Shown here: positions 24,201-64,000 of the stretch, in pieces | How the letters are laid out: each line of letters begins with the position of its first letter | How positions within the stretch are numbered: position 1 is the stretch's first letter | NCBI RefSeq assembly: GCF_021028975.2 | Contig: NC_059430.1 | Span: forward strand, 33,480,001 to 33,544,000 | DNA length: 64,000 nt | Source of the DNA: Sphaerodactylus townsendi | Lineage: Eukaryota | Reading direction: 5' to 3' | Made by a program: the position numbers and the translations under genes | The notes under the pieces: model-generated | The model's database searches: none | What the model was told of the DNA's origin: nothing | Seen by the model: the letters and a program-made list of their open reading frames with translations, nothing else

Positions 24201-24345
24201 TGTTTGATTGTTTCCCTATTTGGTAAAGATGGAAACAATATAAGACTATTCCTTCGAGATCAGATTAACAGTCCATTTAGCCCTGCATTGCTTTTTCCTT
24301 AAAAACCCTACAAGAAGAGCACAGAGGTCAGAAACTCCTCTGTTG

Positions 24346-24605
24346 GTTGTGGTGGGTTTTCTGGGCTGTGTGGCCATGGTCTGGTGGATCTTGTTCCTAA
24401 TGTTTCGCCTGCATCTGTGGCTGGCATCTTCAGAGGTGTATCACAGAGGGAAGTCTGTTACAAGACTTCCCTCTGTGATACACCTCTGAAGGTGCCAGCC
24501 ACAGATGCAGGTAAAACATTAGGAACAAGATCCACCAGACCACGGCCACACGGCCTGGAAAACTCACCACAACCAGTTGAATCCGGCCGTGAAAGCCTTC
24601 AACAT
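24346..24605. mobile_element. Palindromic Penelope-like (Poseidon-type) pLTR mini-element with two hammerhead motifs
   Basis: ~113-bp inverted arms (24344-24456 / 24463-24575), 3' tail ccggccgtgaaagccttc, 13-bp TSD aactcctctgttg (24333-24345; 24606-24618). Confidence 0.85.
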
Positions 24606-24619
24606 AACTCCTCTGTTGT

Positions 24620-24830
24620 TTCTCCTCACCAACTAGCATTCAGTGTACGCTGCCTCTGGATGTGTTTCACAGTTTCATCATAGGCACTGATGGACCTACC
24701 CTCCATGAATGTCTAATCTCCTTGTAAAGCCATCTAAGCTAGTAGCTGACATGTCACCTTGTGGCAGTGAATTCCATCATTATGTACTGTGTGAAGTATT
24801 GCCTTTCATCTGTCCTGAATCAACTGACCA
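24620..24830 (-). mobile_element. Old CR1/L3 3' fragment
   Basis: ctccatgaatgtctaatctccttgtaaagccatctaagctagt...tggcagtgaattcca is homologous to the young CR1 3' end. Confidence 0.6.
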
Positions 24831-25021
24831 GCAAATCTATCCTCTCCCCAATAATAATCCATTAGAGTTCAGAGCAAAGCAAATAATCTTTACCAGACAA
24901 GTGTACAGCTTGTTGTAAGTTTATGGTGTAGGAGAAGGAGATTCTCCAGACCAATAATGGAGAAGCAGCTATGAGATGTTTCCAGACTCTAAAACTATCA
25001 CTGCAGCACCGGGATACTCAC

Positions 25022-25107
25022 CTGGGTTGGATTGTACAGCTCCTGCAACGGGCTTCTTGATCCCTTCCGGCAACAGATGTCCATTCCAAATGGATTCCTA
25101 CGTATTA
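25022..25107 (-). CDS. Internal coding exon (86 nt, phase 1 to phase 0) of an unidentified large-intron gene: [29 protein letters not shown]
   Basis: Acceptor ttttcaatttttccccatcag| and consensus donor CAG|gtgagt; exactly one open frame; CpGs retained; non-repetitive context. Confidence 0.75.
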
Positions 25108-26009
25108 CTGATGGGGAAAAATTGAAAATCAGTGAGCATTTCCACAATTTTAATTAAACAAAAGTTTAAACAAAGAATTATGCTGGATTTCTTAAACCTC
25201 TACTTTATATTCTACAAAAATATTTAACCAGAAAGGTGGATTTGAAGTTTTTGGGTTTCAGATAACTAAATCATATTATCTTTCTGCTTAAATTCCTTTT
25301 CAATATGCTGCCTATACCACAAGCTACACAGGCAAACACACACACATATACACATCAAAGTGGAAAAGATCCAACTGAATACATCAACAGTTGAGTTGCT
25401 GTTTTAATGAATGCACTTTTACTGGGTTTTTTTTAATTAAATGAGTTTACAATCTCCAGAAAGCTAAATTTTCCAAATGGTTATCATTTCCAATTGCTTG
25501 AACTCTGATGCAAGGTCATGTACAAGTTAGGACTCAAACAGAGTCGTGCCCTTCTAAGACCAGTAAAGTCAGTGGCCTTAGAACAGTGTAACTGTTTAGG
25601 ATTGTACTGTAAGTCTCTGAATTTAACAATCTAACATTTCAATACATTATTTCTGAAATATGACACTGATCTCATGGATACTTTCAAACTGTAAGACCTC
25701 ATGGATACTTTCAAACTGTAAGCTGACCACTGGCAGTGGGAGACCTCCCATTCCCTGGAGCCTCTGTCCATTGCCACTTAGCTGGGTAGTAGGAGGGAAA
25801 TGGTGACCTAAATGGGGGGGTGGGGCACACAGTTGACATCCCTAGTGTGATGATGTCACTTCTGGTTCAACCTGGAAGAGGCATATCATATCAGGTGATG
25901 CTCTAACATTCATCTGAAAGTTTATGGTTAAACTATAGAGTTTTGAGTGAGTGCTAGAGCATTCCCTAAATGAGATGGTGTCACTTCTGAATCATGCTGG
26001 AAGTGATAT

Positions 26010-26556
26010 TGTAACCCCCATGCCCAGAATGGATTGGCTCAGAATGAGTTGACCCAGTAAGGGGGTGGAGACTCAGAGCAGCAAGAGGCTGCAGCAGAGA
26101 GCTCTTTGGAGAAGACAAGGGTACCAGACTCGGACCTTGATTTCTATAAGCCCTTAACACCTTGTTAAGGTAATTGCAATATTGTTGGGAACTACTGGGA
26201 AGGTAGTTGTTTGTTTTTGCTATGTTGTAAATGTTGGAGTTATTGTTTCAGGGTTTCTTTTGTGGTTGTAATGGGTGAGAGTTCTCCTGGAAACCTTCAT
26301 CATGTTGCAACCTGTTCATCAAGCCCTTGGAGTCTTCAGGAGCCAGCCAACTTGCAAAGAAGAATTTGGACTTGGCAATATCAGTAGACTGTAAATAGAA
26401 GGACTTGAAATGCAACCTGAACAGAACCTTGAATTGTAAATGTTAAATGTTTTTAAAGTGTTATTTGTAAAGAGAAGTAAACTGTTTTGTTTAAATTTGC
26501 TCCTTTGCAAACTCATTCCAAGTACTGCCCCACAGAACCCACAAGCTGAGGTTACA
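26010..26556 (+). mobile_element. Solo LTR (Gypsy/ERV-type)
   Basis: tgtaacc...ggttaca termini, 4-bp TSD atat (26006-26009; 26557-26560), agtaaa poly(A)-like signal near 26475. Confidence 0.85.
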
Positions 26557-27300
26557 ATATCATCATGCTGGGGTGCTTCGCCACTGTAAGTCTGCGTCCT
26601 CCCGTCAACAGGACAGCTTCCCTAATTAAAAGAGAAGTCTACTTATTATTGAATTGACATTTGAGTACCCTTAGGACAGTGTTCCAACTCTTAGATCTCT
26701 TGATGCCTTCTGCTCTATTCTGGGATGGGGAACAAGTGAACAATATTCAAATACTACTTTTGCAAAAGGCCTATAGGCTACAAAAATCATCTACAGGTTT
26801 GTCATGAAACACTACAGGGGTGCAGTTAAGGAAAGAGTGCAGTTTAATATTTTATTTTAAGAGATGGTTTCAAATACAACACTATTTTTAAATGTAAACC
26901 TTAAAAAACCATGATTTTCCATTTAAGTATTTATGGATTTCAAAAGAGCTGAAAAACTAATGGTGTTTGAGAAGGAAAAGACGAGAAGACGATAGTAACA
27001 TTATTTTCAAAGGTATCATATCCCACAGAATGAAAAAACACCTCACAACTTTATAAGGTACTGTGGAATAATCCTCAACATTATAACCAGGGAAAACAGA
27101 AATTCCATACAGTTCCCTGGAACTCTTGTTGCATCATCTTCCATGTTTTAACAGTGTGCTTTTTGTCAGGTTTGCAGCTATTTTGCAGCACTCTGATTTA
27201 GCAAACTTCACACACTACTTCCAGGCCATAAGCTGTTGCTGTTTTTATTTAGAGGACTCTGAAAGAGCTAGGCTGAAAAGCCAAGCAGAAGTAAAACCAA

Positions 27301-27590
27301 GGTGTTTTCCGCATGGACCATGTATCCTGGGATAAGAAGGTGAAACATCCCGATTTGGCCATGAATTCCGCATGGCTTCTGGGTCTGACTCGGGCCCTCC
27401 CCGCGAGATTTCCCTTACCCCGCGACTTTCAAAAAACAATAAATTGGTGGTTCTTTTATTTAAAAAAACCATGCTGATCCTGCCTCGCCACCTGCAGCCA
27501 ATCAGAATATCGGAAAAAGGGACAGTTCATGAATGCACGGCAACGTTGGTGAGAAAAATTAAAATAAACTGGGGGCCATGCGTAATCACC
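27301..27590. mobile_element. PIF/Harbinger-like MITE
   Basis: Imperfect TIR ggtgttttccgcatggacc / ggccatgcgtaatcacc, similar in style to the 60.9-kb MITE. CpG-rich interior; TSD not evident. Confidence 0.55.
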
Positions 27591-29555
27591 TGGAGTTCTT
27601 CCTCCTGGCCTGAACGCACTGATGGGCTGCCATGCGGAGGGAGAAACCAAGAAAGAATCATAGTATGTATAGTTTCTATACATAAATAATGCCTCATTAA
27701 GCTCTGAAGTGTCTCCATTTGTGCAAGTCACAACAGGATAAGACTTACACAAGATCATAGCCTTTCATTCCACAGTAATAAATCTAGAACACTGTAACGA
27801 CATCATTTCAGTATTCTCAATTACTGTGAATTTTACTGGTTGAACCCAAGTTCCAGTGCTACAAAATATATGAGCACTATAAGCTGATATACAGCTCAGA
27901 TACCAGCAATTGTACAAAATGCAGTCACCATGGCTGCAAACTATCCCCCCCACACACACACACAAACACACATATGGGTGCACAACTCACAATAAGTAGG
28001 ATAGTAGACTCAGGTTTCAAATTGGTTTCTTATTACTACACTAAACTAAAACCCCTCAAGTTAAAATAGTCTTTTACAGTGTTAAAGAGGTTTGTAGAAT
28101 GTTGTCTTGCATATTTATGTTTCCAAACACTGATGCTATACTAGGTTTTCTTACTGCCCTAAAGCAACAAATTATGATATATTACTTAGACAAATTGGGG
28201 TCTTATTTAATGGTTAGCATATTAAAATCTGACAGTTATATGAAAACTGCAAAACAAAAATCCTCTGAAGAAGTGAGATAGAACACATTCTTGCTTTCAA
28301 GACAGAAATGAAAATATTTCTCCCCCTCTTTTAAAACCAAAACATTAAAAAGGTAATTATCTTCAGAAAGAACACACTACTTTCCCCTCCGAGCAGAGAA
28401 AGACACCACAGTTTGGTAGTAAACAAACACATTAAGTATTCCAACTTTCCTTCACAATTAAACAATTGGATATTACCATGGGATGCAATTATAATTAAAT
28501 TCTGAAGATTTTTAGTTAAACAGCTAAATAGGAAAAATTGGTTCATTTTTGAGTGGTTAAACACCTGCAGGAGACCAATCATTAAGTTTTAGCAGGCGCA
28601 CACATACTTTGAATGGAAATGTTTCCCTGCAAAGAAAGAAAAGGTCAGCTTCCAAGCAGATAACAACTCTGAGCTTATATTGTTCACAAATGGATTTTGC
28701 TTCATGCAATCCCTCTATGGAAGAAATCACACCTCCAGAAATCTCACTGTGAAGGAGGCTACACACAGAGACAGCTGATGAGCTGCAGAACTGAGTATCA
28801 ACAAAGAAAAACTACTCAAAAAAGAACACTTGTATCATAAAGACAAGAAATAATAATTTTAAAAACCCTGAAGCTGCATCAAAAGAAAGAGCATAATAAA
28901 ATTAGAGGCAGAAGACAGCCGATTCTGTGAGAACCCAATGAGAAAAGACACTCAGAAATGGGGGCGGGCACTCAAGACTGCCACACTATTATTCATGAAG
29001 TGATCCATTTAAACGATACAGCAAAAAAGCCACAGCAAGACAAATTTCTTTAAAATTGCAACTGATGTTAAAATCACAGAAAGGAGGGGGATGATAAAAA
29101 AAAATCAGGTGGCTTGCAAAGACATTCAAAAACCTTTCTGAACAGTTAGGTCTGTACCATTTACGTAAGTAAAAGTGACGGAGATTAGCAGATTTTCCTG
29201 GGCATGGCTTTCCACATACATAATGCCACATTGAAGGTGGTGACTTGAAGATGGGAACCCAGAATCACTGCAAGGAGGGAAGGAGATCAAAAGAGTTGGT
29301 CTAGTCAGCACGCAGGGCTTGGCCAAGCGGACACTGCCTTCCCCACCGCCCCACAAGGAACAGGATCTGCATGAGATGAATTTGGCTGGGAAGGAGGCAC
29401 CTCCTTTCTCCCCATGCATTGAGGGGTTCACACAGTGAGAGTCTTTGCTGAGCACTGCCTCCCTCCAGTAGTTGGAACCCCTAAACCTAGCAGCAATTTG
29501 CAGTGCAATCATAAACAGAGTTCCACCATTCTAACTTCAATGCAGCAACTCTACA

Positions 29556-29760
29556 GGAGCCAGTGTGGTGCAGCAGTTAAGAACGGCAGATTCTAAACTG
29601 GAGAACCAGGTTTGATTCCCCATATTTCTGCATGAAGCCTAATCCGCCCCACCTACCTCAAAAGGTGCCTGTTGTGGGGAAAAAAGGTATTGTGATTGTA
29701 AGACACTTTGAGACTGCTTAAGGTAAACGAAACCGAGGTATAAAAATCAACTCTTCTTCT
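29556..29760 (+). mobile_element. Squam3-like tRNA SINE (internally deleted)
   Basis: ggagccagtgtggtgcagcagttaag head, ggtttgattcccc B box, L2-like tail ending (ttc)n. Confidence 0.8.
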
Positions 29761-32096
29761 ACAGATTGGGAAATTCCTGGAGATTTGGGGGAGGAGCTTG
29801 AGGAAGGCATGATTTGAGGAGGGGAGGAACATTAGTGGGATGTCATGCCTTAGAGTCCACCCTACAAAACAACCATTTTCTTCCGGGAAGGTGATCCCAG
29901 TAGTCAGGAGGTCAGTTGTAATTCCAGGAGATCTCCAGGCCCCATCTAGTGGTTAACAACCCACCTTCTAGTCAAGCATCTGTATATGAGAGCCTGTGAT
30001 ACCTTTAATTATTTCACAGGAAACAGCGCAACTGCCATGCTGACCTAAGCCAATAAGGGCATTCTTGTCCTCTACCTAGAACTCAACAATTTATCATACT
30101 TTGGTCCAAGTCCCATGGTAAATGGTCACATGCATGTCATCTAATATTCCTATTACTTGTTCATTATTAAAAAGGCAAAGATTATGTTGGAAAACCTTTT
30201 TATAAAAAGTAAAAGTAATTCACAACTGTACATGTTTAGGTACCAAGAAACTTGTTCCTTAGCAACAGCAACATTTTTATGTAGAACATTTCAGGCTGAC
30301 TTGCTTCTAAATGTAATACAGTACAATGCAATTTAAATTTGCTTATCATTATGACAAAGACGTTAAAGATGGTTTTGTAACAGTAACACAACAGCTTTCA
30401 AAGCAGTCTGTGGCCCCAATTGCATGTTTTAAGATAACTTTATTAGAGTTTATGTAAGAAGGTTTATTAGTAGTGTTGTGTAGACTTCCCAACTCTAATC
30501 TGGACTTGGGGGCTTTGATCCCAATTATGCCTCCTCTCACCAACAACTAAGATTGTTCAGTGGAATTCTGATAAAGGTTCCATCATATGTAGATGCTACT
30601 ATAATAACCTCTAGAAGAAAAGGTGCCTTTTTTGGTGAAAGAGTTGAATCTTTGATGCTTTGCAATTTCTCTTTGATTCTGTTGTCTCCAGAGGGGACAA
30701 AAGTGGCATCATGCCTCTCTAGGCAACACATCTTTCTAGGAATTGCTACAGTTGGCTGAAATCACTTCCAGGTTTTTACTGGAAGTGATGTCATGCCATA
30801 GCCTGGTGTTGATTTCATCTAAAATAATTTTTCTACTACTAGCTGAAGAAGTGGTGGCAGGAAACAAGAAAAAGAGGTAGAATATGCCCCACACCCAGTG
30901 GGAACATGGCAGTCCTAACTCAAACATTAATTCCCTATACAAGGAGCAGCATCAACCAAAGGTTGTACAACAAACATTCCTACAGTGTGAAAGTCAACCT
31001 CGTGATCTCTCATTGTGCTTTCTACGACCATTTTCCAGCATGGTCCAATATTACATCTACTACCTGTGAAGGGAGAAAGGTCAATACCTAGAGGATGAAA
31101 AGATTTAACCCTTCAACTTCTAACATGCAAAGTATGTTTTGTCCAAGAATAACTGATAAACAGAAGGAAGGGGCCACACCAATACAGAGTCCAGGATGAG
31201 AAGAAAACAGAGGTGCCGTGGGAAAAACATATTTTATTTGTATTAGTAGATCCCCATTCAGATCTACAGATACAAATAAAATGTATATTTTTACTTTTCT
31301 TCCAAGAATAGTTGATAATCAAGAGTCTACAGAAATACAGCTCAGAAGAGCAATCACAAAAGGACATTGAATGCCAGCTCTCCAGAAGGATAGCTAAATA
31401 TAAGCCCTGAGTCTGTCAAAAAGTCTTTGGCAGCTCATATATAGGCAGATACCACAAAAGAAGACAACATTGTAGTTTCTACCAACATAAGCATACAAAC
31501 AATAGTTTGATACATGAATTTTCAAGCTCTTACATTCCTCTTGTGTTTTCACTGAAGCAACAGCATAGCAAGTATTCACATTTCCCAGAATTCTGTGCCA
31601 ATAGCACCACCACCACTGGACAACTACTATTGGTGGTAGTAGCAGTAATAATACACCTGCTGAAGAGCAGTAGTCAAGAAGGTAGAGCCAACAATACAAG
31701 AGACCAGATGTTGTCCCAGCAAAGGCTGAGGGTGAAATGAGATCTTAAACAGTTCTGCAAAGGACGCTGAGATGCAAACCTTGCCTTTCAAGAGCAGGCC
31801 ACTAGTCCTTGAATGGTCTGTGCCTGGTTATGGTGGTGAGTATTCCAATGGGGTCAGTTGGGCTTTGTGAGGCTCAAGGGGTCAGTTGGAGGAGAGAACT
31901 CAAGTTCTGCAGTGGGCTCTGCGGTGGAGAGGACCCTGAAGCCCAAGACAAAGGGCTGTATCCCAGGGTAAGAGGGCTGATTCAGACTCCTCAAGCTCCT
32001 CAAATCTCAAGTGTCTCCTCTTGTGGTGGTGGTAGGTGCTCAGCCTCCTCTTCCAAGTCTTCAGTTTCTGTCTCATGAGAAGGAGTCTGTACTCTG

Positions 32097-32190
32097 GGGT
32101 GTTGTGGGGTTTCTGGGCTATATGGCCGTGTTCCAGTAGCATTTTCTCCAGACGTTTCACCTGCATCTGTGGTTGGTATCTTCAGAGGAC
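32097..32190 (-). mobile_element. 94-bp Penelope-like pLTR insertion consisting essentially of a hammerhead ribozyme
   Basis: Minus strand tcctCTGAAGAtaccaaccacagatgcaggtGAAAcgtctgga...; 13-bp TSD agtctgtactctg (32084-32096; 32191-32203). Confidence 0.85.
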
Positions 32191-33409
32191 AGTCTGTACT
32201 CTGTTTCACAACACTACTTGCATTTTATTCTTCCTTCATCATGTTTTATTTAGATTATTTATACAGTCCTAATGACTCCTGGTTTCCATTGAGCCAGGGA
32301 CTCTAGAGGACCCTCCTCTTAACAGTACTACAATACCTTGCTGGAGGAAAAATCGTCTCTGCTACCCTTCAGTACCACAACTGTAGCTGGTCAGAGGATG
32401 ATGTTATAGCTACCAACACAGCTGGAATCAGATGACACAAGAAATCAGCAGTATTCTGCTTCATCCTATAAAGCTGTTGACTCTAGACCAGTTCCTCAGT
32501 CTAAGCAGGAGCCTGAGTTCCCTCCCTATGTGACAATGCAGAGGAATCCAGCAGCCTTGACCACCAGCCTTGACCACCATGCAGAGGAATCCAGCAGCCT
32601 TGACCACCAGCCCTGATATCTAGCTGTCATCCACAAAGTACTTCCATCTTTCCACACAGTGCATTTAACTGTAGAAGTCTATGGATAGCTTTGTGGTCTC
32701 TTACATTTGGTTTAAGACTTCAGTTTCCCTATTTGATCTCTTTCTGAAAACTATACTTATCGGAATGTATTATTAAATCTTTGGCTAGCTGGCTGCTTTT
32801 GTTTTCATGTAATCAGCCTTGCAGCGACTTTAAAAAGATCAAGTGCCTTACCCATTATACAACAAGAAATGCAATATGCTTCTCCAGCAGTTTTGATACA
32901 GTTAATATCTTCCACTGCGCTATACTCTAAAAAGTGAGCAACCTGTTACAGCAGATGTAGGCAACCCCCAGCACGCATTTTGAAGTTGGGCATGCCAGAC
33001 CATTTTGCTTAGCACATGGGGAAGTTCTGATGCAACAAGTACAGATTTTTGAGGCACAGGAGCAGTGGCTTGGGAGAAGATTATGTCTATGCCTTATGGC
33101 TGTCATTGCCTGCCAGATTCATGCAGCCACCAGTTGGGTCAAGGTCAACCAAAGGACTGACAAAATTGTTGTACCATGCCTGGCTTCTACTGTTTGTGGT
33201 CAAGTATTCCCCCCAAAACATACATACACACACCTTTTTTTTGTCAGCACACTACTATCTTCACAGGTAGATTATGTGTTTTTCAGAGCATTCGGCCCAG
33301 AGAGATTGCCTACTTTAGTAATTCCCATCCTTTTTGATATGACCCACATATCCAAATTTACTCGGTATGGTGTTTTTTTTTAATGCCTGAGGCAAACTAC
33401 AACCTTTTA

Positions 33410-33645
33410 AGGTTCTAGGTACAGGAAAAGAGATTCATCCTAAACATTAGGAAGAACTTCTTGACAGTAAGAGCTGTTTGACAGAGGAATACACTGCCTT
33501 GGAGTGTGGTAGAATCTCCTCCTTTGGAGGTTTTTAAACAGAGACTGGATGGCCCGCTGTGAGGAATGCTTTGATTGTGTATTCCTGCATTGCAGGGGGT
33601 TAATGGCCCTTCTGGTCTTTTCCAACTCTATGATTCTATGATTCT
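33410..33645 (+). mobile_element. CR1 3' end (different subfamily)
   Basis: aacattaggaagaacttcttgacagtaagagctg...ttccaactctatgattctatgattct, an (attctatg)n tail. Confidence 0.85.
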
Positions 33646-34479: not shown

Positions 34480-35025
34480 AAATGAAAGTGAAATACCTAG
34501 GAGAGGTCTTGTAAAATATGAATAGCAAGTTACTTCAAAATAATTATGTCAAAATATAGAATGAAGTTAAAAGGATCTTTCAAGGTGGAATAAACTGACG
34601 TTGTCACTCTTAGGTAGAATTTTGGTGATTAAAATGAATGTTTTACCAAGAATGTTATTCTTATTTCAAACAGTTCTGATACCGTTAAGTGATACTTTCT
34701 TTAAACAGGGGTAAAAGGACATGTCAAGCATTATATGGCAGGGAAAGAGACTTCCGGTCAAACTAAAGATACTACAAGATGCAAAAGAAAAGGGGGGGGG
34801 GGGGATTAGGCCTACCTCACCTAAGGCTATATTTTGCATCCTGTTGTTTAGTTTGGTTGAAGGAATGGATCACATTAAGAAATAAAAGACTGCTGGATCT
34901 AGAAGGACATGACTTGAAATTTGGATGGCCTGCATATTTATGGTATGATAAGGTTGAAGTAAATATTTTACTAGCCATTATATTAGGCATGCCATACTGA
35001 GAATATGGACTAAATTTAAACCTAG
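34480..35025 (+). mobile_element. L1/Tx1-like ORF2 internal fragment
   Basis: KYLG; IKMNVLPRMLFLFQ; GGLGLPHLRLYFASCCLVWLKEW. Confidence 0.75.
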
Positions 35026-35220: not shown

Positions 35221-36242
35221 AGAAATGACATAGAAGTCTACAAAAATGATGCAAAAAGGCCTGTCTAACCCATTTGTTTGTAGCATCTGGAATTCAAAAG
35301 CCTATGGCCTCTCTAACTGCCAGTTCTAAACATTTGCACCAGAGTATCTGTCTGTCATGATGTGAAGCTATAATCTCATTCTAATGGCAGCCTGACATCA
35401 TGCTTCAATAGGCTTGCCATTGGTTGGTGTCCCCAGATGAAACCCTTAAGACTGGAATCAAGACAGTAGACAAACCAAAAATACAGGGAACTGTTGAATA
35501 CATTCTCACTCTCTTGACATCACTGTTCTGGGAAAAAATATGAGTCAGCAATCTTTTTATATAGACATGACAGTTTTCTCTTGAGAATTTCTGAACTGGA
35601 CTAACAGTAACCTCTTCTTTTGAAAGAAGAAAGTACCACAAATCATTCATATACTTGGAAGCAGGGATACTTGGAAGCAGGGAGTCATTTATTCCTATTA
35701 AATAATGCTGAAATATTATACCCATCAGCAGTCCACCCTAAGCCTTAAGGGTGTCCTAAGTTTGGCCACCCAACCTGCCCCTCACCCAACCTTACTGTAG
35801 GGAGTGGGAAGATGATGACTATCCTCCTCCCCTGCACTGAAGTGAGGTGGCATGCATCATTCTTCTTAATTCAGCTATCAACATTTCCGGGCCACATCTG
35901 GATTCTTCCCTAGAAACATCCTCAGTCCCAGCCTTATTCAAGTTCTTCTGCCTATACCTTCCCTTCCCACATTTCCCAGTTTCACTATTTGCTTATCTTT
36001 CTGGCAGGGCGTTGGAATAGACAAGAACACATACGAAGCTGCCTTATACTGAATTAGACAATTGGTCTACTCAGACAGCACCGTCACTCCAGAGACTCAT
36101 TTAGTGGACTATTACATCACCTATTTTCTGGTCCTCTTAAGTGGAGATGCCAGGAATTGAACCTGGGATCATCTGCATGCAAAGCAGATGCTCTTCCACT
36201 GAGCCAGAGCCCCCTCCCGCTCAAACCTACTAAATGATATGT

Positions 36243-51878: not shown

Positions 51879-52354
51879 AGGTTGATTTCTAATTCTGCTT
51901 TTTCAAACCAATGTTTATGGGGCAAATCATTGTCTGTTTTCTCTCTACTACTCCATATTAATCAGAACCAAGAGGATGATAGGTGCTGTGCAAAAATTAC
52001 TTCAGTCTTTATCCGGATGATTTATATACTGTTTTACATGGTCAGAACTGACAACAGAGGAAAGTCTGCTCAAAGAGCAGTCAAAAACAACAAGAGGGTT
52101 TTTTAACACCCCACTTTTCTCTACTTTTAAGAACATAAGAACATAAGAACATAAGAACATAAGAACATAAGAACATAAGAACAAGCCAGCTGGATCAGAC
52201 CAGAGTCCATCTAGTCCAGCTCTCTGCTACTCGCAGTGGCCCACCAGGTGCCTTTGGGAGTTCACATGTAGGATGTGAAAGCAATGGCCTTCTGTGGCTG
52301 TTGCTCCCGAGCACCTGGACTGTTAAGGCATTTGCAATCTCAGATCAAAGAGGA

Positions 52355-55165
52355 TCAAGATTGGTAGCCATAAATCGACTTCTCCTCCATAAATCTGTCC
52401 AAGCCCCTTTTAAAGCTATCCAGGTTAGTGGCCATCACCACCTCCTGTGGCAGCATATTCCAAACACCAATCACACGTTGCGTGAAGAAGTGTTTCCTTT
52501 TATTAGTTCTAATTCTTCCCCCCAGCATTTTCAATGAATGCCCCCTGGTTCTAGTATTGTGAGAAAGAGAGAAAAATTTCTCTCTGTCAACATTTTCTAC
52601 CCCATGCATAATTTTATAGACTTCAATCATATCCCCCCTCAGACGCCTCCTCTCCAAACTAAAGAGTCCCAAACGCTGCAGCCTTTCCTCATAAGGAAGG
52701 TGCTGCAGTCCCTCAATCATCCTCGTCGCCCTTCTCTGCACTTTTTCTATCTCTTCAATATCCTTTTTGAGATGTGGCGACCAGAACTGAACACAGTACT
52801 CCAAGTGCGGTCGCACCACAGCTTTATATAAGGGCATGACAATCTTTGCAGTTTTATTCTCAATTCCTTTCCTAATTATCCCCAGCATAGAGTTTGCCTT
52901 TTTCACAGCTGCCATACATTGAGTTGACATTCCCATGGAACTATCAACTAAGACTTAAATCCCTTTCCTGGTCTGTGACTGATAGCAAGGACCCCTGTAG
53001 CGTGTATGTGAAGTTTGGATTTTTTGCCCCTATGTGCATCACTTTGCATTTTGCTACATTGAACTGCATTTGCCATTTCTTAGCCCACTCACCTAATTTA
53101 TCAAGGTCCGCTTGGAGCTCCTCGTAATCCTTTGTGGTTCTCACCACCCTACATAATTTGGTATCATCTGCAAACTTGGCCACCACGCTACCCACCCCTA
53201 CTTCCAGGTCATTTATGAATAGGTTAAAGAGCACTGGTCCCAATACGGATCCTTGGGGGCAACCACTCACTACATCTCTCCATTGTGAGAATTTCCCATT
53301 TACACCCACTCTTTGCTTCCTGTTTCTCAACCAGTTTTTAATCCATAGGAGGACTTCCCCTCTTATTCCTTCATTGCTGAGTTTTCTCAATAGTCTCTGG
53401 TGAGGAACTTTGTCAAAAGCCTTTGGAAATCCAAGTAGACAATGTCCACTGGTTCCCCTTATCCACATGCCTGTTTACATCCCTCAAAGAACTCTAGTAA
53501 GTTTGTAAGACAGGATTTGCCTCTGCAAAAGCCATGCTGACTCTTTCTCAGCAGGTCTTGCTTTTCTACATGTTTTATAATTTTATCTTTAATGACAGAT
53601 TCTACTAATTTACCAGGAACAGATGTCAAACTGACTGGCCTGTAATTTCCTCCGGGTCCCCCTAGATCCTTTCTTAAAAGATTGGTGTGACATTGGCCAT
53701 CTTCCAGTCTTCAGGGATGGAGCCTGATTTCAAGGATAAGTTGCATATTAAAGTGAGAAGATCAGCAATTTCATGCTTGAGCTCTTTAAGAACTCTTGGG
53801 TGAATGCAATCTGGGCCAGGGGATTTGGTAACATTTAGTTTATCAATGGCTGCCAGAACTTCTTCCTTGTCTACCACTATCTTTGCTAGTTCCTCAGATT
53901 CGCCTCCTAAGAAGCTTGGTTCAGGTGCAGGAATTTTCCTCACCTCCTCTTGGGTGAAGACAGATGCAAAGAATTCATTCAGCTTCTCTGCAATCTCCCT
54001 GTCATCTTTTAGCACACCCTTTGTTCCTTTGTCATCTAACGGGCCTACCGCTTCCCTTGCTGGCTTCCTGCTTTTGATGTACTTGAAGAACTGTTTGTTG
54101 CTGGTTTTGATGTTCACAGCCATGTGTTCCCCATAATCCTTTTTTGCCTCCCTTACAGCTAACTTGCTTCTCTTTTGCCACCATTTGTGTTCTCTCTGGT
54201 ATTCTTATCAGTTAACTTGGACTTCCATTTTCTAAAAGACATCTTTTTTTTTCCTAATAATTTCCTCAACGTCCCTTGTTAACCATGGTGGCTTTCTTTT
54301 GGACTGTGGCGCTGCCTTTTCTAACCTTAAGTGAACACATTCCAGCTGAGCTTTTGTGACTGTGTTTTTAAATAACCTCCAAGCATCTTGGACATTTTGA
54401 CTCTCTTGATTTTCCCTTTCAGCTTCCCAAGACTATCCCCTCATCTTTGAGAAATTTCCCTTTCTGAAGGCAAATGTAACTACATTAGTAGTTGTCACTT
54501 GTTCGCATGCAGAGATACTGAATCTGACAGCATTGTGGTCGCTGTTCCCTATCGGCTCAACAACACTGACTTCCCCCACCAGGTCCTGGGTCCCATATAG
54601 AATTAGATCTAGGATCACATCTCCCCTGGTTGGTTCTACAACCATCTGCTCTAAGCCACAGTCATTTAGCATATCCAGGAATGTTCTCTCCTTACTATGA
54701 CCTGAACATGCATTTTTCCAGTTTATATGGGGATAGTTAAAATCGCCCATTACCCGCGACATTTTGCTTTTGTTGGCCTCTCTAATTTCTTTTTCCATCT
54801 CAGAATCCTCTTGTGCGCTTTGGTCAGGGGACTTATAATATATTCCTAATGTTAAACTATGCTTCACCCCTGGTATTGATATCCACAGTGCTTCTGTAGG
54901 GGAATCAGCTCCCCCTGCACTGTCTATTTTATGTGACACTATGCTCTCTTTGATGTAGAGGGCCACTCCACCCCCAATACGCCCTGTCCTATCCTTCCTG
55001 TAGAGCCTGTAACCTGGGATAACAGCATCCCACTGGTTCTCCTCATTCCACCATGTCTCTGTGATGCCCACTATATCAATGTCCTCCTTCAAAACTCTGT
55101 ACTCCAGCTCCCCCCCGTTTTAGGTCTAATGTTTCTACTATTAGCATAGAGACACTTGTATACTC
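52355..55165 (-). pseudogene. CR1 ORF2 (APE endonuclease + reverse transcriptase), broken by small indels
   Basis: IVGITETWW, MGDFN, GNSDH (EN); KSPGPDCIHP, KAFDKVPH, PQGSVLGP, KFADD (RT); VRPHLEYCVQFWSP. Confidence 0.93.
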
Positions 55166-55359
55166 TGCCCTCTGTCCCTAACCTGGGATTTATGTGTTTT
55201 GCCCTCTAGCCTTTGTAGACACTATCACTTATCACATTGCTGTGCTCTTCACTTGTATGTGGTTGATTTAAAAAAAACCTCCTTCTCTGTCTGCATCCCC
55301 ATGGACTCTGTATTCCGAACCGAAGTCACCTCAGCTCCTGTCGGCTTTCCCCAGGGATC

Positions 55360-56260
55360 AGTTTAAAAGCTGTTCTGCCACCTTTTTAATGTTGAGCGCC
55401 AGCAGCCTGGTTCCTCTTTGGTTAAGATGAAGCCCGTCCCTTTTGTACAGGCCTGCCTTATCCCAAAAAGGTTCCCCAGTTCCTGACAAATCTGAAACCC
55501 TCTGCCTTGCACCACCTTCTCATCCACGCATTGAGACCCTGTATCTCCGCTGCCTAGCTCGCCCTGCGCGTGGAACAGGTAGCATTTCAGAGAATGCCAC
55601 CTTGGGGGTCCTGGATTTTAACCTTTTTCCTAGCAGCCTAAATTTAGCTTCCAGAACCTCCCGGCTACATTTCCCAATGTCATTGGTACCAATGTGGACC
55701 ACAACTGCTGACTCCACCCCAGCACTGTCTAACAGCCTATCTAGACGTAGCGTGACATCCGCAACCTTCGCACCAGGCAGGCAAGTCACCATGTGGTCAT
55801 CACGCCTGTCACAAACCCAACTCTCTATATTCCTGATGATCGAATCACCCACTACAAGGAGCCCCCCACCTCCCCGAGGGGTATCCTCAGTGCGAGAGGA
55901 TATCTGACCACCAACTAAGGAAGGGGTCCCATCTAAGGGGACATCTTCCCCCACCGCAGACTGGCACCCTCTGTCACCCAGACTCTCATTCTCCATGACA
56001 TCTGAAGAGATGTCACCTTGGGAGTGGGACCCGGCTGCTGGGTCCCTGAAAGCCTTGTTTGTTGCCCTCTCTGCCTCTCTCAGCTCCTCCAGGTCTGCCA
56101 CCTTGGCTTCAAGAGAACGGACACGTTCCTTGTATGCCAGGAGCTCATTGCAGCGAGGGCACACCCACGACTTCTGGCCTAGTGGCAGATAGTCATACAT
56201 GTGACACTCAGTGCAAAACACTGGGAAGCCCCCATCCCCCTGCTGGCTTCCTGCCTTCAT
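55360..56260 (-). pseudogene. CR1 ORF1 (N-terminal zinc finger/coiled coil + SGNH esterase), frameshifted near the C-terminus
   Basis: CTEC...CPRC, coiled coil, VVGDSII, CLPGAKV, VHIGTND. Confidence 0.9.
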
Positions 56261-56385
56261 ATCTGCTTTTGTTTATATATTTAGATATTAAACTTTTAGT
56301 CAGTGCCCCTTTGAGCTATCTGTACCTACTATCCCTCAAAAAATGTCCTTATTAATTAATTAATTTATTTATTTTTTAAAAAAAG

Positions 56386-56837
56386 ACCTCCAGCAGTCTC
56401 AGCTCTTAGCAACCTTACAAGGAGAAAAAGAGAAAACCCCTGCAAACCCCTGTTAAAAATACACTGTTTTAAAAGATGTGGCTTTGAGAAAAGCCCTCCA
56501 AAATGAACACCAGCAGGTCACTCTGCTCTTCCTGGCCAGTTGCCTTGTCCACTGCTGCTCCTTTCTGCTGGTTCCAGAGACTGAACTAAAGACTGAATGA
56601 CTCACCTCAGGAGCCCCACCTTTAGCAGCCCAGGACAAAGAGTAACCTCTGTTAACCCCTGTTAAGCCCCACCTCCAGCAGTCTCAGCTCTTAGCAACCT
56701 TACAAGGAGAAAAGAGATAACCCCTGCAAACCCCTGTTAAAAATACACTGTTTTAAAAGATGTGGCTTTGAGAAAAGCCCTCCAAAATGAACACCAGCAG
56801 GTCACTCTGCTCTTCCTGGCCAGTTGCCTTGTCCACT
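56386..56837 (-). repeat. Tandem 5'UTR monomers of the CR1 (period 285 bp, ~1.6 copies)
   Basis: 56386-56553 is repeated almost exactly at 56671-56837. Confidence 0.9.
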
Positions 56838-57273
56838 CAATTTTTAAGGCATCTCAAAGCTGTTTACAATTCCCTTCCCTTCGCTACCCCCTCCACACAC
56901 AGAGATAACAGATGCCTTGTGAGGTAGGTGGGTCTGACAGAGCTCTGAGAGAACTGTGATTAGCCCAAGGTCACCCAGCAGGCTTCATGGGGGGAAGTGG
57001 AGAAACAAACCTGGCTCTCCAGTTCAGAGTCTGCTACTCATGTGGAAGAGTGGAAAATCAAACCCAGTTCTCCAGATAAAGAGTCCATCCCTCTTAATCA
57101 CTATGCCATGCAGAAATATTGCATCAATGGGATCCTTAATCCCAAAGTTATACACCAGCTCCAGTTGGGGAGGGGACATAGCTCAGTGAGAAAATATACA
57201 CTTTTAAAGGCATGAATTCAATCTCCACCATTTCCAGTTTTAAAAGATTTCTGGGGGCTTTGAAGGTCTAGTT

Positions 57274-57707
57274 CAGGGGTAGGGAACCTTTAACACTCAA
57301 AGAGCCACTTGGACCCGTTTTCCATGGGAAAAGAAAACACTTGGAGCCGCAAATAATTTTTGACATTTAAAATAAAGATAACACTGTATATATTGGGTTT
57401 TTTTTACCTTTTACTCTGCTCATTCTGAGAAACGCATGGATGCATCTGCCCTGCTGCCTAGAGGGCGGGCAAGGATGGGGCCAGTGGCTCGGCCTTGCCG
57501 GCCGCCAGGAAAGTGCCCGCCCCGCTCCAACGGGGCAGGCGAGAGGGGAAGCCCGCGGCATGGCCCAGCCGGCTGCGGGCAGTTGGTGCGCCCACCCTGC
57601 TGCCTGCAGGGCGGGCAAGGATGGGACCAGCTGCTCGGCTCGAGGAGCCATGGTGCAAGGGCAGAAGAGCCGCATGCGGCTCTCGAGCCGCAGGTTCCCT
57701 ACCCCTG
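57274..57707. mobile_element. hAT1-like non-autonomous DNA transposon with GC-rich interior
   Basis: TIR caggggtagggaacc/ggttccctacccctg; subterminal aagagccgcatgcggctctcgagccgc; 8-bp TSD gtctagtt. Confidence 0.88.
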
Positions 57708-59309
57708 GTCTAGTTCATAGGAAGAGACTACAAAATACATTTAGCTATGTCTCGTTCATAGGAAGAGACCACAAAATACTCATAAGCTTTATCAAAGTTT
57801 CTATTACCCAACAGCCATACTTTCTTGGGCTGCTATGATTCCCTGACATCCCTTCCAAACATGTTTCTTGTAACTAACGAGAAAACCGAAACAGACTTCT
57901 AATTATAAACGGATATGAATTCTCTATTCTGGCCAACAAATCACCAGTGCAGCAGCACAATCTCTAGATGTCAGTGGATATGCCCCCGCCCACTCCAGAC
58001 TGTTATTGTGATTATATTTATGTTTATTGAATTTCTAGACCGCTCGCCCCTGTTAACCAGGCTCAGAGTGGTTTACAACATTTAACACAATAAAAACAGC
58101 ATCGCTTACCTTCCCCATCTATTGTTAACTGTGCAGTCTCCTTAGAAACAGGCGATTACACATGTGACAAAATAAATGATTTAATTACTTTGCATGAACA
58201 AAACCCACTACCTCGCTTGAGAGGAACACGCCACAACAGAAAAGCTTTGGGAGACATAGAGCATCCCAAGTTGGGAGTTTTTTTACTTTTAAAAGAAGCA
58301 TTTGTTCAATTTTTTAAAAAGTTCTGCTGTCAGAATTGACAGTTTGATGAAGCAGAGAGAAATCCCCTGTCCATTAATCATCTTTCAATTTTTTTTCCAA
58401 AAATGCCGCTTCAGCCTTGGTGGAAATAAATTTTTAATACCTGAACTCCTGCAACCCACCCAAGCATTTGTTAAACGCACGGTGCTCCGTCAGCCTTATT
58501 TTGCTCTCTCCTGAGTTAGGGTCTTGAGAAAATGGATATGTAGCAGCTAGGATAACAGGAGCTGCGTAACTCCAGCCAAAGACCTTTGGAGATCTATCTG
58601 TCATGCAGTAGATCACTAGGCCATGGAGGGAGGGGAACCCACTCCGTTGCTTGAAGGTGACTCCAGAGAGCAGCAGTCAGCTATGAATCAGGTCTCCATT
58701 ACATCACCAACTTCTTATTTTAGATATTTTCTTCCTTTCTTACAGATTTGACTGTCTGCATAGCTGTTTTTCACAGTGAAGCAATTACTAGTTTTCTGGA
58801 AAGACGCCAGCCTTCAAACAGACATTTCCCCAAAGAGGCATTCTGTCCACATTCCTAATGATTTACTCCTTTTCTGCATACATGGCATTAATTGTTATTG
58901 CCAAACATCTCTGCACAACAGACAAAGGTCAGCCCTCAAAGGAAAGCAACAATATGAGGAATTCTCTACTTTTCACACCACACTCTCCCCCCATTATTGT
59001 GTGCATTATGTGCTACAGTTGTACAATCTTGGGCTTACAGAAATATACACATACCATTCCCATCTCTACATTCAGACAGCTTAACAACACCCACAATTTA
59101 AAGCCAATACAATAGAAAACACAAACAAAAATCATCAGACAATGACACACAGTCCAAAAAACACACCAAAAACAAAGCAACAGGATTAATCTGGGCATGT
59201 CTTGAGGAATATAAAAGGCTTCTGCGAACCTTCAAACTGCCTCTGCACCTCCTCCATGAAGCTATTCTGGTGAGAGAGAACACCAAGTCATCAACAACAA
59301 AGTATATAC

Positions 59310-59660
59310 ACTCACTGAAGAAGACGTCTGCACTTTTCTGTTAAAGGGCACAAGTAGCAGGGTCTACTGTCCAAGCTAAGGAAGCACACGGGTTCATACC
59401 AGGAGATGCAGTTCTTTAAGCATGCAGTTCCCAGGTCATGAAAGGCTTTAAACTTAACAATTTGAACTGAAATTGGAAGGAAATAGGCAGCCAAATCTAG
59501 TGCCAGATGAATGTGATACTGTCCATACACCAAAGACAGTTGGCTGCACTCAGCATGAACTGCCTTCAGCATGAACTGCCTTCAAGGCCAACCCTGCATG
59601 TAATGTGTTACAGTTATACAGTCTTGGGGTTACAGAAATATGAATCAGCCAGGGTCATGT
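59310..59660 (-). mobile_element. Degraded L2 ORF2 fragment
   Basis: Minus translation LPISVQIVKFKAFHDLGTACLKNCISWYEP resembles the L2 C-terminal region. Confidence 0.55.
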
Positions 59661-59754
59661 CAGATGAGTTTAAAAAAGAAGGATAACATATTAACTAATT
59701 GTAGGTCATAAGATAACAGTCCAAGCAATATCTCCAACCTGATGTTACAGAATA

Positions 59755-60050
59755 AGAGGAAGAAGGAAGAGGAGGAGAAGTTTGGATTTATACTCCCTTT
59801 CTCTCCTGTAAGGAGACTCAAGGCAGTTTGCAAATTCCTTTCACTTCCTCTCCCCATACCAGACCCCCTGTGAGGTAGGTGGGGCTGAGAGAGGTGGGGC
59901 CCAAGGTTACCCAGCAGGAATATAAGAATGGGGAAACAAATCTGGTTCACCTGATAAGAGTCCACTACTCATGTGGAGGAATGGGAAATCAAACCCAGTT
60001 CTCCAGATTACAGTCCACCTTCTGTTACCCACTGCACCACACCGGCTCTC
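59755..60050 (-). mobile_element. Squam3-like SINE, full length
   Basis: gag/gaa tail, core, duplicated B-box segment, cactgcaccacaccggctctc head. Confidence 0.8.
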
Positions 60051-60863
60051 TAGGATGTATATTGGGATGAATAGTTTTAGCTTTACCACACAAACTCCTG
60101 CAAACATATGCACACACATGATCACATGCTTATACTCTGGATCCAGAAATAGATGCTGCAAAATGACAAGCAGTCAGAAATATTTTAGTAGTCATTGATT
60201 CTCCTTACAAAACCTGGAAGCTGGGGGTTTGTGTGGACCAAATTAGAGGTTTAGTGTCAGACCTGAGTATAGGAATTTCAGTTGTCTGCCAAATAGCTAC
60301 AGAGTGTTGGAAAAGAAGTGTCAGCTGCAGCCAAGATAGCAGTGTATAACCCTTTCCCCACCCACTTGCTCTTGCAAGCTATGCTATTCCATGTACTTCC
60401 CCAAACCAGATCTAGAAGTGTACAGCATTGCTAGGAAATACTTTTTTCTTCTGGACCCCATTCTTGCCTTCCAACAATAACAGACATATAAATATAAAAT
60501 TTAAAACCTAGAATTTTAACCCATGAATTCTAGTTCATTTTCACAAAATGGCATTCTGTACTACTTGATGATCTCATGTAGACGGAGCAATTCTCAACAG
60601 GTAAAGATTGGTCCAAGGATGGCGATCAGGAGACTAACAGCAGCCAAGAAACTCAGGGGCACAAAGGAAAAGAGACAGGAGGGAAGGGAACATGAGGGTA
60701 AAAGGGGAAAGAGAGAAGAAGGTAGGGGTAGGAAAACACACTGTTGGGGGGTGGGGAAGGAAAATCTCTCCCTACTACAACTCGCAGTTTCCTACCCCCA
60801 AGCCCTTTGTAGTTGTTCACTATTGACCTAGATCCCTGATCAAGGTTGGCTGATGAACACTGA

Positions 60864-61004
60864 GGCTCATTCCGCACATGCAGAATAATGCACTTTCAAA
60901 CTGCTTTCAGTGCTCTTTGAAGCTGTGCGGAATGGCAAAGTCCACTTGCAAACAGTTGTGAAAGTGGTTTGAAAATGCATTATTTTGCGTGTGCGGAAGG
61001 GGCT
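60864..61004. mobile_element. PIF/Harbinger MITE
   Basis: TIR ggctcattccgcacatgcagaataatgca / tgcattattttgcgtgtgcggaaggggct; 3-bp TSD tga. Confidence 0.85.
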
Positions 61005-61677
61005 TGAGTTTGGATCAAAGAGGTACACTGACCATTTTCCATTAACTTCCCCCCATCTTCCAGCTCCTTCATAGATTGCTAATTCATAGGATTGTTTTAT
61101 TAGTTAGGCCCTATCACAGCTGCATCAGTCTGAAATTGATTCCAGTTTGTAGTGCAGAGATAAAGTACGAGTCATTTGTAATCAGGGTCAAAAGACTGAA
61201 AATGCAGTCTAAATACAGCAGATTTTAAGCACATTTGCTGGTTATGCTGAAAGATGGGAGTCTCATGGCAAAATGAAAGGAATTCTACAGCAGGGGAAAA
61301 TATCACAGATTATGGTCTCTGTGAGGGTGTAGTGTCCATTTTTATGTGATTGAAGGGAAGGGAGGAGGTAGAGGATTTTGGGATTTGTCATAAATTCATT
61401 ATGCGCAGCAAGGTTAAATGTGGCAGCTAACTATAAAACCTCCTAAGGTTTACGATAGTCTTAAAAATTCCAGCAAACGGCAGAAATTATTAGATTTACA
61501 AATTATAGTCAAGCCAGAAAAAAATCCTCAACTATCATACAAATTTATTGCAGAGTGGATTTTTTTTTTTGCCCACTGTGGAGTAATAAATATGATGAAA
61601 AGACTCAGCTGTTTGCTTTGTGGAAGCACAGTATGCACCTACTCCAAGAAAAAATGTAGCCTTGAGATGCTCTAAAC

Positions 61678-61826
61678 CAGGGGTCTGCAACCTGCGGTTC
61701 TCCAGATGTTCCTGGACTACAATTCCCATCAGCCCTTACCAGCATGGCCAAATTGGCCATGCTGGTAGGGGCTGATGGGAATTGTAGTCCATGAACATCT
61801 GGAGAGCCGCAGGTTGCAGACCCCTG
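61678..61826. mobile_element. Palindromic hAT MITE (same family as 9447-9594)
   Basis: TIR caggggtctgcaacc/ggttgcagacccctg; 8-bp TSD ctctaaac. Confidence 0.9.
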
Positions 61827-62728
61827 CTCTAAACCAAGGTTCTAACCTCAGATGCAATTGCATTTTGGTCTTCATGAAGTTTCTTTCACATAGAAATAGT
61901 TTCTGCACCTAGCAAATCAAGAAGTCAGTTATTTAGAATTCTTCTCTCAGCCATATAACTGTGTTTAATCAATGTGTTTTCAGCACAAGCGACTATTTTT
62001 TGTGCTGTAGTTCCATCCTGGCATTCTGAAATGGTACATTCCTGGTAGAGTTGAGTGATGCAGTTCTTCTGAATGCGTAGTTCACCCCTCAACTATTGCA
62101 TTCCAGAAGCTTATATTACTCAGCTAAGAGAATCTATTTGTTGGCAAGTCATATGAAGTAGATATATGTATATTAAAGATGCAATCAAAACCAGTTACAC
62201 TATAACAGAAGTGCTGCAATTCAGCAGGCGGTTCCATCTATCCTTCACCATTGCAGACTGCATAAAGTCTTTTGTTTTCCAAAGAAGGGGTGGGTTTTTA
62301 AAATTCTATTACGGGTGTTTTCAGTGATGTTTTTATTTTGTACTTGAGCATGTGCAACCTCTGCAATTTTAATGGAAAGCTGTATATAATGTACAAAATT
62401 AAAGTCTACAAGTTTATTGAAAGAGATGCAGCGTTGCTTAATCAAACTTCACATTATAGACTCAGGGACGTGGGTTTCCATGTTTTGGATTCTTACTGCA
62501 TCCAAAATAGTTGTACTCAAAAGGGTAATGGTTTCTCTAATCTATGTGCTATTGTGCCATCTAAGAATGTTTGAAGAGCAGCACCAATCACAGCTCTTCT
62601 TGCATAGCTTTTGCTTTTGTCAGTCTTACCAACTCAGTGTCAATGTATTGTCGAAGGCTTTCACGGCCGGAATCACTTGGGTGCTGTGTGGTTTCCGGGC
62701 TGTATGGCCGTGTTCTAGCAGCATTCTC

Positions 62729-62771
62729 TCCTGACGTTTCACCTGCATCTGTGGCTGGCATCTTCAGAGGA
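62729..62771 (-). ncRNA. Minimal type I hammerhead ribozyme (pLTR copy 1)
   Basis: ucCU-CUGAAGA-u-gccagc(cacagau)gcaggu-GAAA-CGUC-agga: core boxes, helix I uccu/agga, GUC cleavage triplet. Confidence 0.75.
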
Positions 62772-63046
62772 TCTGATGTTGGGAAAGCAAGTGGAGTATA
62801 TATCTGTTGGAGTGTCCAGGGTGGGTGGGGAAACCTTGTCTGTGAGTAACAAAGGCAGCAACCAGGTCAATAGTTGAGGGCATCTGAATAGAAGTATGAG
62901 TAACAATGAAGACTATAGCCTGGGAGTAACCCTGTAGATAGCAAGGTCACTGGTGGGAGCATCTGAATAGAAGTATCCTGGCCTTTGTTTCTTTTGTCTA
63001 TGGTCATCCTGTGTTTGTGTGGAGCTGGTTAGACACTGTCTTGACT

Positions 63047-63430
63047 CTAGTATTTTTTCAACACTGGCAGCCAAGTTCTGTTCATTTTCATAGTTTCTTC
63101 CTTCCTGTTAAAATTGTCCATGTGCTTATGGATTTCAATTGCTTCTCTGTGTAGTCTGACGTAGTGGCTTTCAGAGTGGTCCAGAATTTCTGTTTTTTCA
63201 AATAATATTCTATGTCCAGGTTGGTTTATCATGTGTTCTGCTATTGCTGATTTTTCTGGCTGAAATAGTCTGCAGTGCCTTTCGTGTTCTTTGATACGTG
63301 TCTGTGCGCTGCGTTTGGTGGTTCCTATGTAGACTTGTCCACAGCTGCATGGTATGCGATAGACTCATGCAGTAGCTAAAGGATCCCTCTTATCCTTTGC
63401 TAAATGTAGCATCTGTTGAATTTTCTTAGT
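63047..63430 (-). pseudogene. Penelope GIY-YIG endonuclease domain, truncated, with in-frame stop
   Basis: KDKRDPLATA*VYRIPCSCGQVYIGTTKRSAQTRIKEH...SAIAEH...REAIEIHKHMDNFNRKEE; TGA sits where the G of the GIY motif is expected. Confidence 0.9.
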
Positions 63431-63877
63431 TTAAATAATAAAAAAAACAAAAAAAACCAGAAATTCTGGACCACTCTGAAAGCCACTACGTCAGACTACA
63501 CAGAGAAGCAATTGAAATCCATAAGCACATGGACAATTTTAACAGGAAGGAAGAAACTATGAAAATGAACAGAACTTGGCTGCCAGTGTTGAAAAATACT
63601 AGAGTCAAGACAGTGTCTAACCAGCTCCACACAAACACAGGATGACCATAGACAAAAGAAACAAAGGCCAGGATACTTCTATTCAGATGCTCCCACCAGT
63701 GACCTTGCTATCTACAGGGTTACTCCCAGGCTATAGTCTTCATTGTTACTCATACTTCTATTCAGATGCCCTCAACTATTGACCTGGTTGCCGCCTTTGT
63801 TACTCACAGACAAGGTTTCCCCACCCACCCTGGACACTCCAACAGATATATACTCCACTTGCTTTCCCAACATCAGA

Positions 63878-63920
63878 TCCTCTGAAGATGCCAGCCACAG
63901 ATGCAGGTGAAACGTCAGGA
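63878..63920 (+). ncRNA. Minimal type I hammerhead ribozyme (pLTR copy 2)
   Basis: Identical motif in the inverted arm. Confidence 0.75.
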
Positions 63921-64000
63921 GAGAATGCTGCTAGAACACGGCCATACAGCCCGGAAACCACACAGCACCCAACTCAGTGTCAGTTTGAGGACATATCCAA

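Follow-up and report, generated by a model that had tools for sequence, protein, structure and literature searches.

Three insertions of a Penelope-like element (PLE) lie in a 64,000-nucleotide stretch of Sphaerodactylus townsendi DNA (contig NC_059430.1, positions 33,480,001 to 33,544,000; hereafter the window). All three are present where an earlier note on this DNA placed them and, as that note had it, they are flanked by exact target-site duplications (TSDs) of 13, 13 and 14 bp (Table 1). Each is a 5′-truncated piece of a Poseidon-type PLE and includes a tail-less arm; insertions 1 and 3 also have a second arm, which is inverted and bears the tail, in agreement with the earlier description. 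Comparing these insertions with several hundred others, we find that their ends probably record two target-primed reverse transcriptions, one for each nicked strand, at two fixed internal sites of the element RNA. Throughout, element positions are counted from the predicted hammerhead cut, with + downstream and − upstream.

In the window, the tail-less arms stop at a fixed place beyond this cut. The note had put the stop at about 50–55 nt; the fixity stands, and the distance is revised to a measured +53 to +57. Sharing of bases between arm and TSD was also read correctly at tg in insertion 1 (24344–24345, a 2-nt overlap in which the CA counted in the +55 end also belongs to the TSD) and at ccaa in insertion 3 (63969–63972). 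Near 32095 in insertion 2, sharing is confirmed, although it extends to three bases rather than two (ctg, 32094–32096, +55 to +57). The tailed arm of insertion 3 shares another 3 nt with its TSD (62640–62642), which the note had missed. Overlaps of at least 2 and at least 3 nt have null probabilities of 0.15 and 0.04, and the three window insertions, taken alone, are only suggestive of microhomology. The hammerhead cores of both arms of insertion 1 are decayed, the 5′ end of insertion 2 falls within a hot spot of the family at −38 to −47, and the two arms of insertion 3 are identical at 519 of 521 bases.

Table 1. Components of the three PLE insertions in the window
Feature	Positions	Strand	Details
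Insertion 1, left TSD	24333..24345		13 bp, AACTCCTCTGTTG; last two bases common to arm end
Insertion 1, tail-less arm, subfamily C	24344..24456	-	Decayed hammerhead, predicted cut before 24398; end +55
Insertion 1, head-to-head junction spacer	24457..24462		6 nt
Insertion 1, inverted tailed arm	24463..24605	+	Tail 24576-24605; hammerhead core mutated
Insertion 1, right TSD	24606..24618		13 bp
Insertion 2, left TSD	32084..32096		13 bp; 32094-32096 common to arm end
Insertion 2, only arm, tail-less	32094..32190	-	Spans -40 to +57; intact hammerhead core, cut predicted before 32150
Insertion 2, right TSD	32191..32203		13 bp
Insertion 3, left TSD	62629..62642		14 bp; 62640-62642 common to tail end
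Insertion 3, tailed arm, subfamily A	62640..63430	-	Predicted hammerhead cut before 62732; tail 62640-62676
Insertion 3, broken C-terminal endonuclease frame	63050..63430	-	GVY-RIPCSC-GQVYIG-type core, in-frame stop
Insertion 3, A-rich filler at head-to-head junction	63431..63450		~20 nt
Insertion 3, tail-less arm	63451..63972	+	Hammerhead core 63882-63916; end +56
Insertion 3, right TSD	63969..63982		14 bp; CCAA 63969-63972 common to tail-less arm end

The tailed arm of insertion 3 comprises the end of a putative GIY-YIG endonuclease region, the 3′ untranslated region and pseudo-long terminal repeat (pLTR), a TATA-like box, the hammerhead, the start of the open reading frame (ORF) and the tail. 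The window carries only the C-terminal part of the Penelope protein and not the reverse transcriptase (RT); a long but frameshifted copy elsewhere (L210) matches RVT_1 (E 2e-13) and contains a YVDD motif with an endonuclease frame downstream. The translated frame, GVYRIPCSCGQVYIG with downstream His residues, shows two cysteines inside a GIY-YIG-type core, resembling the CCHH arrangement described in PMC8557442, but it gave no Pfam or PDB match. The putative minimal type I hammerhead of the pLTR, with a CTGAAGA..GAAAC-GTC core in insertions 2 and 3, has the same motif as the Anolis relative PAc (PMC11167929); an Rfam search returned no hammerhead match. The Poseidon placement is a sequence-based one, resting on 85% identity to a stretch of PAc RNA (82 of 97 bases, ungapped, from +1 to +97 by our own count with the subfamily A reference; PMC11167929). 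Exact matches in 1.81 Gb number 14,102 for a hammerhead 34-mer and 9,351 for a tail 21-mer, which marks a highly abundant family. An inverted truncated arm, a one-sided tail of 30–40 bp and a TSD of variable length, all found here, together with TATA-like and Inr-like (initiator-like) motifs in the pLTR, have been described for endonuclease-bearing (EN+) PLEs, in which the tail is often at one end only (PMC3846280, PMC8557442, PMC2377424). The element and its architecture are ordinary in this respect. To account for the inverted shape, the same sources invoke self-priming or resolution by the endonuclease, and they describe the steps involved as undefined.

To the window we added 420 loci fetched by element-internal patterns (30 through the tail, the others through hammerhead, upstream or −8 to +50 sequence), nearly all from contig C1, which merged into 365 stretches and 469 non-duplicate element blocks. 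Blocks were coded by their 3′ ends, N for tail-less and T for tailed, and 108 blocks from loci fetched once the pattern had already been noticed served as a replication set. Two-ended blocks almost invariably hold one end of each kind: 196 of 200 are NT, with 2 NN and 2 TT (binomial p = 8e-53 against independent choice), as are all 59 in the replication set. Of the four exceptions, two seem to be NT blocks assigned to the wrong class; on inspection, one NN block was two adjacent insertions and the other had a damaged tail. TSDs were detected in 157 of the 196 NT blocks versus 1 of 300 mismatched flank pairs. This one-each pattern supports the earlier note's twin-priming-like interpretation, with priming events at two different RNA positions.

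The two kinds of end are also sharply placed. Most 3′ ends (579 of 672) fall within +52 to +59 or +84 to +97; in subfamily A, tail-less ends concentrate at +54 to +58 (141 of 155; standard deviation (SD) 1.5 nt) and tail ends at +87 to +91 (121 of 146; SD 2.5). The breakpoint fixity that the note proposed to check in TSD-flanked copies was thus found, and variable breakpoints were not. Only three of 230 tailed arms run on into the ORF, with the continuation seen in PAc, which places both classes of end inside the start of the ORF. They correspond to the internal start sites reported in vitro for PAc (PMC11167929), and the tail is not an RNA 3′ end. Nor does the hammerhead cut serve as more than a landmark, as arms read through it: element sequence from the 5′ side of the cut is present in 286 of 309 arms of subfamily A, a set selected in part by hammerhead patterns. 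The constant distance from the cut could be taken to mean that hammerhead cleavage or processing of the RNA fixes the end, an explanation already largely refuted and very improbable, given that neither end coincides with the cut and that mutating the ribozyme does not alter insertion in vitro (PMC11167929).

Blocks with a single recognised end are divided between tail-less (95, of which 29 have a TSD) and tailed (97, of which 25 have a TSD), and several of the TSD-flanked tailed blocks are diverged two-arm copies. Pieces resembling an aborted tail occur at the 5′ end of 9 of 29 single tail-less arms versus a null of 14% (p = 0.015, a weak signal).

The target itself is symmetric. Outside the TSD, A occupies positions −3/−2 at frequencies of 0.74/0.73 at one end and 0.66/0.65 at the other, compared with 0.28–0.35 further out, and this signal is sharpest when the shared bases are assigned to the TSD. 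The spacing between AA and TT peaks at 15, TSDs are 12–14 bp long in 90 of 112 cases, and 63 of the 69 clean insertions can be accommodated by a single 12-nt stagger, all pointing to a site of the form AAN/12–13 nt/NTT. A variant in which the endonuclease motif was confined to the tail-less nick was rejected, as the motif is present at both nicks. In the established geometry of target-primed reverse transcription, such a symmetric stagger would leave 3′ overhangs, and therefore both 3′ ends would be able to prime. PAc prefers ATT targets in vitro (PMC11167929).

At L024:1283-1818, two PLE insertions lie side by side with an A/T-rich duplicated site in common, which suggests re-insertion at an existing TSD, and L253 holds a compound insertion of three direct pieces with an internal copy of its own TSD. 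Independent-looking insertions at L088, L093 and L240 (also L258) occupy an identical position within another repeat, either through a recurrent target or through amplification inside that repeat.

Junction pairing was assessed by reconstructing the pre-insertion target from the TSD and comparing it with the element RNA. From 154 junction pairs we obtained 122 clean tail-less and 146 clean tail anchors, of which 96 and 112, respectively, had an overlap of zero or more; the null permuted break positions among real targets (4,000 permutations; calibration false positives of 5% and 2.5%). Mean TSD overlap was 1.40 nt versus 0.74 nt in the null at tail-less junctions and 1.98 versus 0.97 nt at tail junctions, values reached by none of the 4,000 permutations in either case, and the excess repeats in the later-fetched loci. 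It survives when negative overlaps are scored as zero (means of 1.10 and 1.52, still significant). Microhomology above chance, which the note had suggested checking, is therefore found at both ends; the note was right about its presence at the tail-less arm but not about its being special to that arm, as the tail end is the stronger. A chance resemblance between the A-rich motif and the RNA end does not explain the microhomology, since the excess persists in permutations among real targets.

The excess of matches covers the first three to five bases of the TSD, with none outside it, and the first TSD base follows the RNA base at the break. Microhomology is short and not obligatory: among 122 tail-less junctions, the overlap is 0 nt in 23 and negative in 26. 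Even in zero-overlap junctions, TSD bases 2–4 match the RNA more often than expected (0.77 versus 0.38 in 23 tail junctions; 0.52 versus 0.29 in 23 tail-less junctions), which we take as a sign that priming tolerated a mismatch at the last base.

The centres of the insertions bear on how the two arms arose. We kept 111 of 127 subfamily A cases, dropping 16 for library entries with inverted arms or for long gaps, and excluded subfamily C inner-junction values because its library entries contained inverted arms. The arms overlap in most copies, and at the centre they are joined bluntly, through overlaps of 2–5 nt or by a short templated filler. In 46 cases it is the tail-less arm that extends further 5′ and in 20 the tailed arm, and the two lie within 5 nt of each other in 45; since either arm can reach further, copying from a single fold-back is excluded. 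In an earlier proposal, self-priming or a fold-back of the cDNA, perhaps on an antisense RNA, first forms the inverted unit, which the endonuclease resolves to leave a one-sided tail and which repair then joins to a staggered cut through microhomology (PMC3846280, PMC8557442). Near-perfect central palindromes are indeed common, and microhomology is typical of repair as well, but TSDs also flank single-arm insertions of both end types, both ends coincide with RT start positions seen in vitro, and the pairing register is kept despite a mismatched terminal base; we consider this route improbable. Less likely by far is that the short fold-back units are elements moving as preformed DNA in the manner of miniature inverted-repeat transposable elements (MITEs). 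They are palindromic, TSD-flanked, very abundant and about 200–260 bp long, yet central junctions differ between copies (a GATC join does recur), insertion lengths range from 83 to 2066 bp, long arms hold RT and endonuclease sequence, and the arms are asymmetric rather than forming a uniform unit with symmetric terminal inverted repeats.

We favour two cDNAs copied from one RNA, because the 5′ ends of the arms are coupled and their variants concordant. The 5′ extents are short/short in 78 insertions and long/long in 21, with 10 and 2 discordant (odds ratio 82); mixed A/C insertions number 0 of 157, and the variant at +55 agrees between arms in 69 of 73. Singleton variants shared by both arms amount to 5 in 11,106 sites, 3 of them in one insertion (null mean 0.2, maximum 4); A-to-G editing common to both arms was not seen (1 of the 5 shared singletons, no A>G excess). 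Priming on two separate RNAs, held for example by the halves of a hammerhead RNA dimer from one locus, is unlikely, though of the alternatives it comes closest. In its favour, a single RNA would have to serve as template twice, with strand displacement, to give overlapping arms; cleavage in dimeric form has been reported for PLE hammerheads (PMC6765202); and +55 does differ in four arm pairs. Two templates alone would leave the use of different sites in 196 of 200 cases and the coupling of 5′ extents unexplained; moreover, 5′ ends downstream of the cut are commoner in tailed than in tail-less arms (13 versus 2 of 111), as expected of early stops on meeting the first cDNA.

The 5′ ends suggest where copying runs out. 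In subfamily A, 151 of 309 lie at −47 to −38 and the TATA-like box at −70; in subfamily C, partly chosen through a −62 to −35 pattern, 51 of 161 lie at −85 to −70 and 6 at −47 to −38, with the box at −105. The subfamilies have the same hammerheads and boxes 35 nt apart, and in both the ends cluster 26–35 nt past the box, where single-arm stubs such as insertion 2 also end. Run-off at a predicted transcription start may account for this hot spot. When single-arm stubs were inspected by eye, no extra cap-derived G was evident. Energy folding places +46 to +56 and +83 to +89 in AC-rich loops in both subfamily references, and an AC-rich stem loop is reported at the main PAc start site (PMC11167929).

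Taken together, two target-primed reverse transcriptions could proceed as follows. A predicted dimeric protein would nick both strands at AAN/12–13 nt/NTT and so create 3′ overhangs, each of whose 3′ ends would pair over 1–4 nt with one predicted AC-rich loop (+46 to +56 or +83 to +89), often with its last base mismatched, and both cDNAs would be copied toward the RNA 5′ end, likely on one RNA. Copying would usually run off at the predicted transcription start about 30 nt past the TATA-like box, giving stubs of 100–260 bp (insertions 1 and 2), and would occasionally extend on read-through RNA, giving longer arms (insertion 3); end-joining repair would link the cDNA 3′ ends, and failure of one primer would yield a single-arm insertion. 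A stronger form, which we hold tentatively and at somewhat less than even chances, is built-in double priming: a symmetric dimer would engage two neighbouring loops of a single RNA, one with each active site, committing each strand to a different start, with the register set by mismatch-tolerant pairing as in telomerase-like primer alignment and the same RNA copied twice by strand displacement.

Several points weigh against the reading as two target-primed reverse transcriptions. The whole mechanism is read from the scars of past insertions, and 39 of the 196 NT blocks have no TSD. Overlap is negative, with extra or mutated bases, at 26 of the 122 tail-less junctions and at 34 of the 146 tail ones, and these cases were omitted from the main permutation; when they are scored as zero, the replication set is weaker (p = 0.038 tail-less, 0.002 tail). 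TATA-like spacing is the sole basis for predicting the start site, both 5′ hot spots contain short palindromes that could capture joins, and in the unselected subset of the partly pattern-selected subfamily C, 1 of 33 ends lies at −47 to −38. The loop structures are energy predictions, and covariation among 18 aligned decayed copies gave no support for the start-site hairpins (term +0.29). Four of 73 arm pairs are discordant at +55, and shared singletons could also arise by conversion between arms. Finally, the sample is dominated by contig C1 and young copies.

L1 twin priming, reportedly described by Ostertag and Kazazian in 2001, is said to have the second target strand prime a second cDNA, leaving an inversion inside the TSD with microhomology; its first primer reportedly uses the poly(A) end and its second a variable position further upstream, giving arms without overlap. 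The present insertions likewise have an inversion inside the TSD, and both of their 3′ ends adjoin the target (157 of 196 NT blocks). They differ in that both sites are internal, fixed and about 33 nt apart and that the arms duplicate each other. The signature is real and belongs to a known family, and it works like twin priming, yet it is not L1-type twin priming.

PAc is the closest comparison. As in the present element, its ORF begins in hammerhead stem II and its target is AT-rich; in vitro it nicks and extends both strands, starts RT at two internal sites on either side of the tail, is predicted to be dimeric and does without ribozyme cleavage (PMC11167929). Its main site, ORF 111–118, corresponds to +82 to +89 here, and tail-end TSD starts peak at +87 to +89. 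The excerpts of PMC11167929 report initiation without homology to the target and no strand difference, whereas we find pairing over 1–4 nt; they deal neither with TSD length and inverted arms nor with a one-each rule, which here is strict, with a symmetric AAN/12–13 nt/NTT target in vivo. Those of the EN+ PLE descriptions (PMC3846280, PMC8557442, PMC2377424) show no counts or junction statistics, which are given here. The architecture, the two internal start sites and both-strand extension in vitro are already published (PMC11167929, PMC8557442). A one-each rule, junction pairing and a symmetric target for PLEs were not found in the literature searched, whose coverage excludes key subscription papers. 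Compared with the 2024 in vitro work, the proposed mechanism goes modestly further, with pairing as the one point of tension.

Other repeats were seen along the way. Seven places (L016/L042, L034, L197/L347, L200, L239, L296 and L415/L416) carry arrays, the longest of at least 6.8 kb, whose 16-base unit consists of 15 C and a single A or of the complementary bases. Several begin in the middle of a palindrome, either Penelope or another; they are most likely an assembly or gap-filling artefact, with reiterative synthesis still conceivable. Within the window, two palindromic copies of about 160 bp (9441–9603 and 61672–61835) start with CAGGGG and have 8-bp direct repeat flanks; they resemble a hAT-type MITE and give weak mir-5408 Rfam matches below the gathering score. 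A tRNA-like sequence on the minus strand (36142–36213; Rfam 56.4 bits) adjoins other repeats and may be the head of a short interspersed element. Two copies at 13579–14116 and 52167–52703 are 96–98% identical over about 540 bp, the latter within a run of long minus-strand frames at 52–56 kb; the repeat is presumably a young long interspersed element.

The origin of the inverted arms and one-sided tail has been called undefined (PMC8557442), and the in vitro work leaves the later steps open (PMC11167929). The counts given here qualify the published claim of homology-free priming (PMC11167929) and make sharp predictions: one site per strand, a 12–13-nt stagger, target bases that steer the start, and one RNA. 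They would also explain thousands of hairpin stubs as by-products of priming about 100 nt from the front end of the RNA. If double priming is true, the inverted pLTR with its one-sided tail would be the normal product of these elements, and neither end would need second-strand priming on the cDNA for its attachment.

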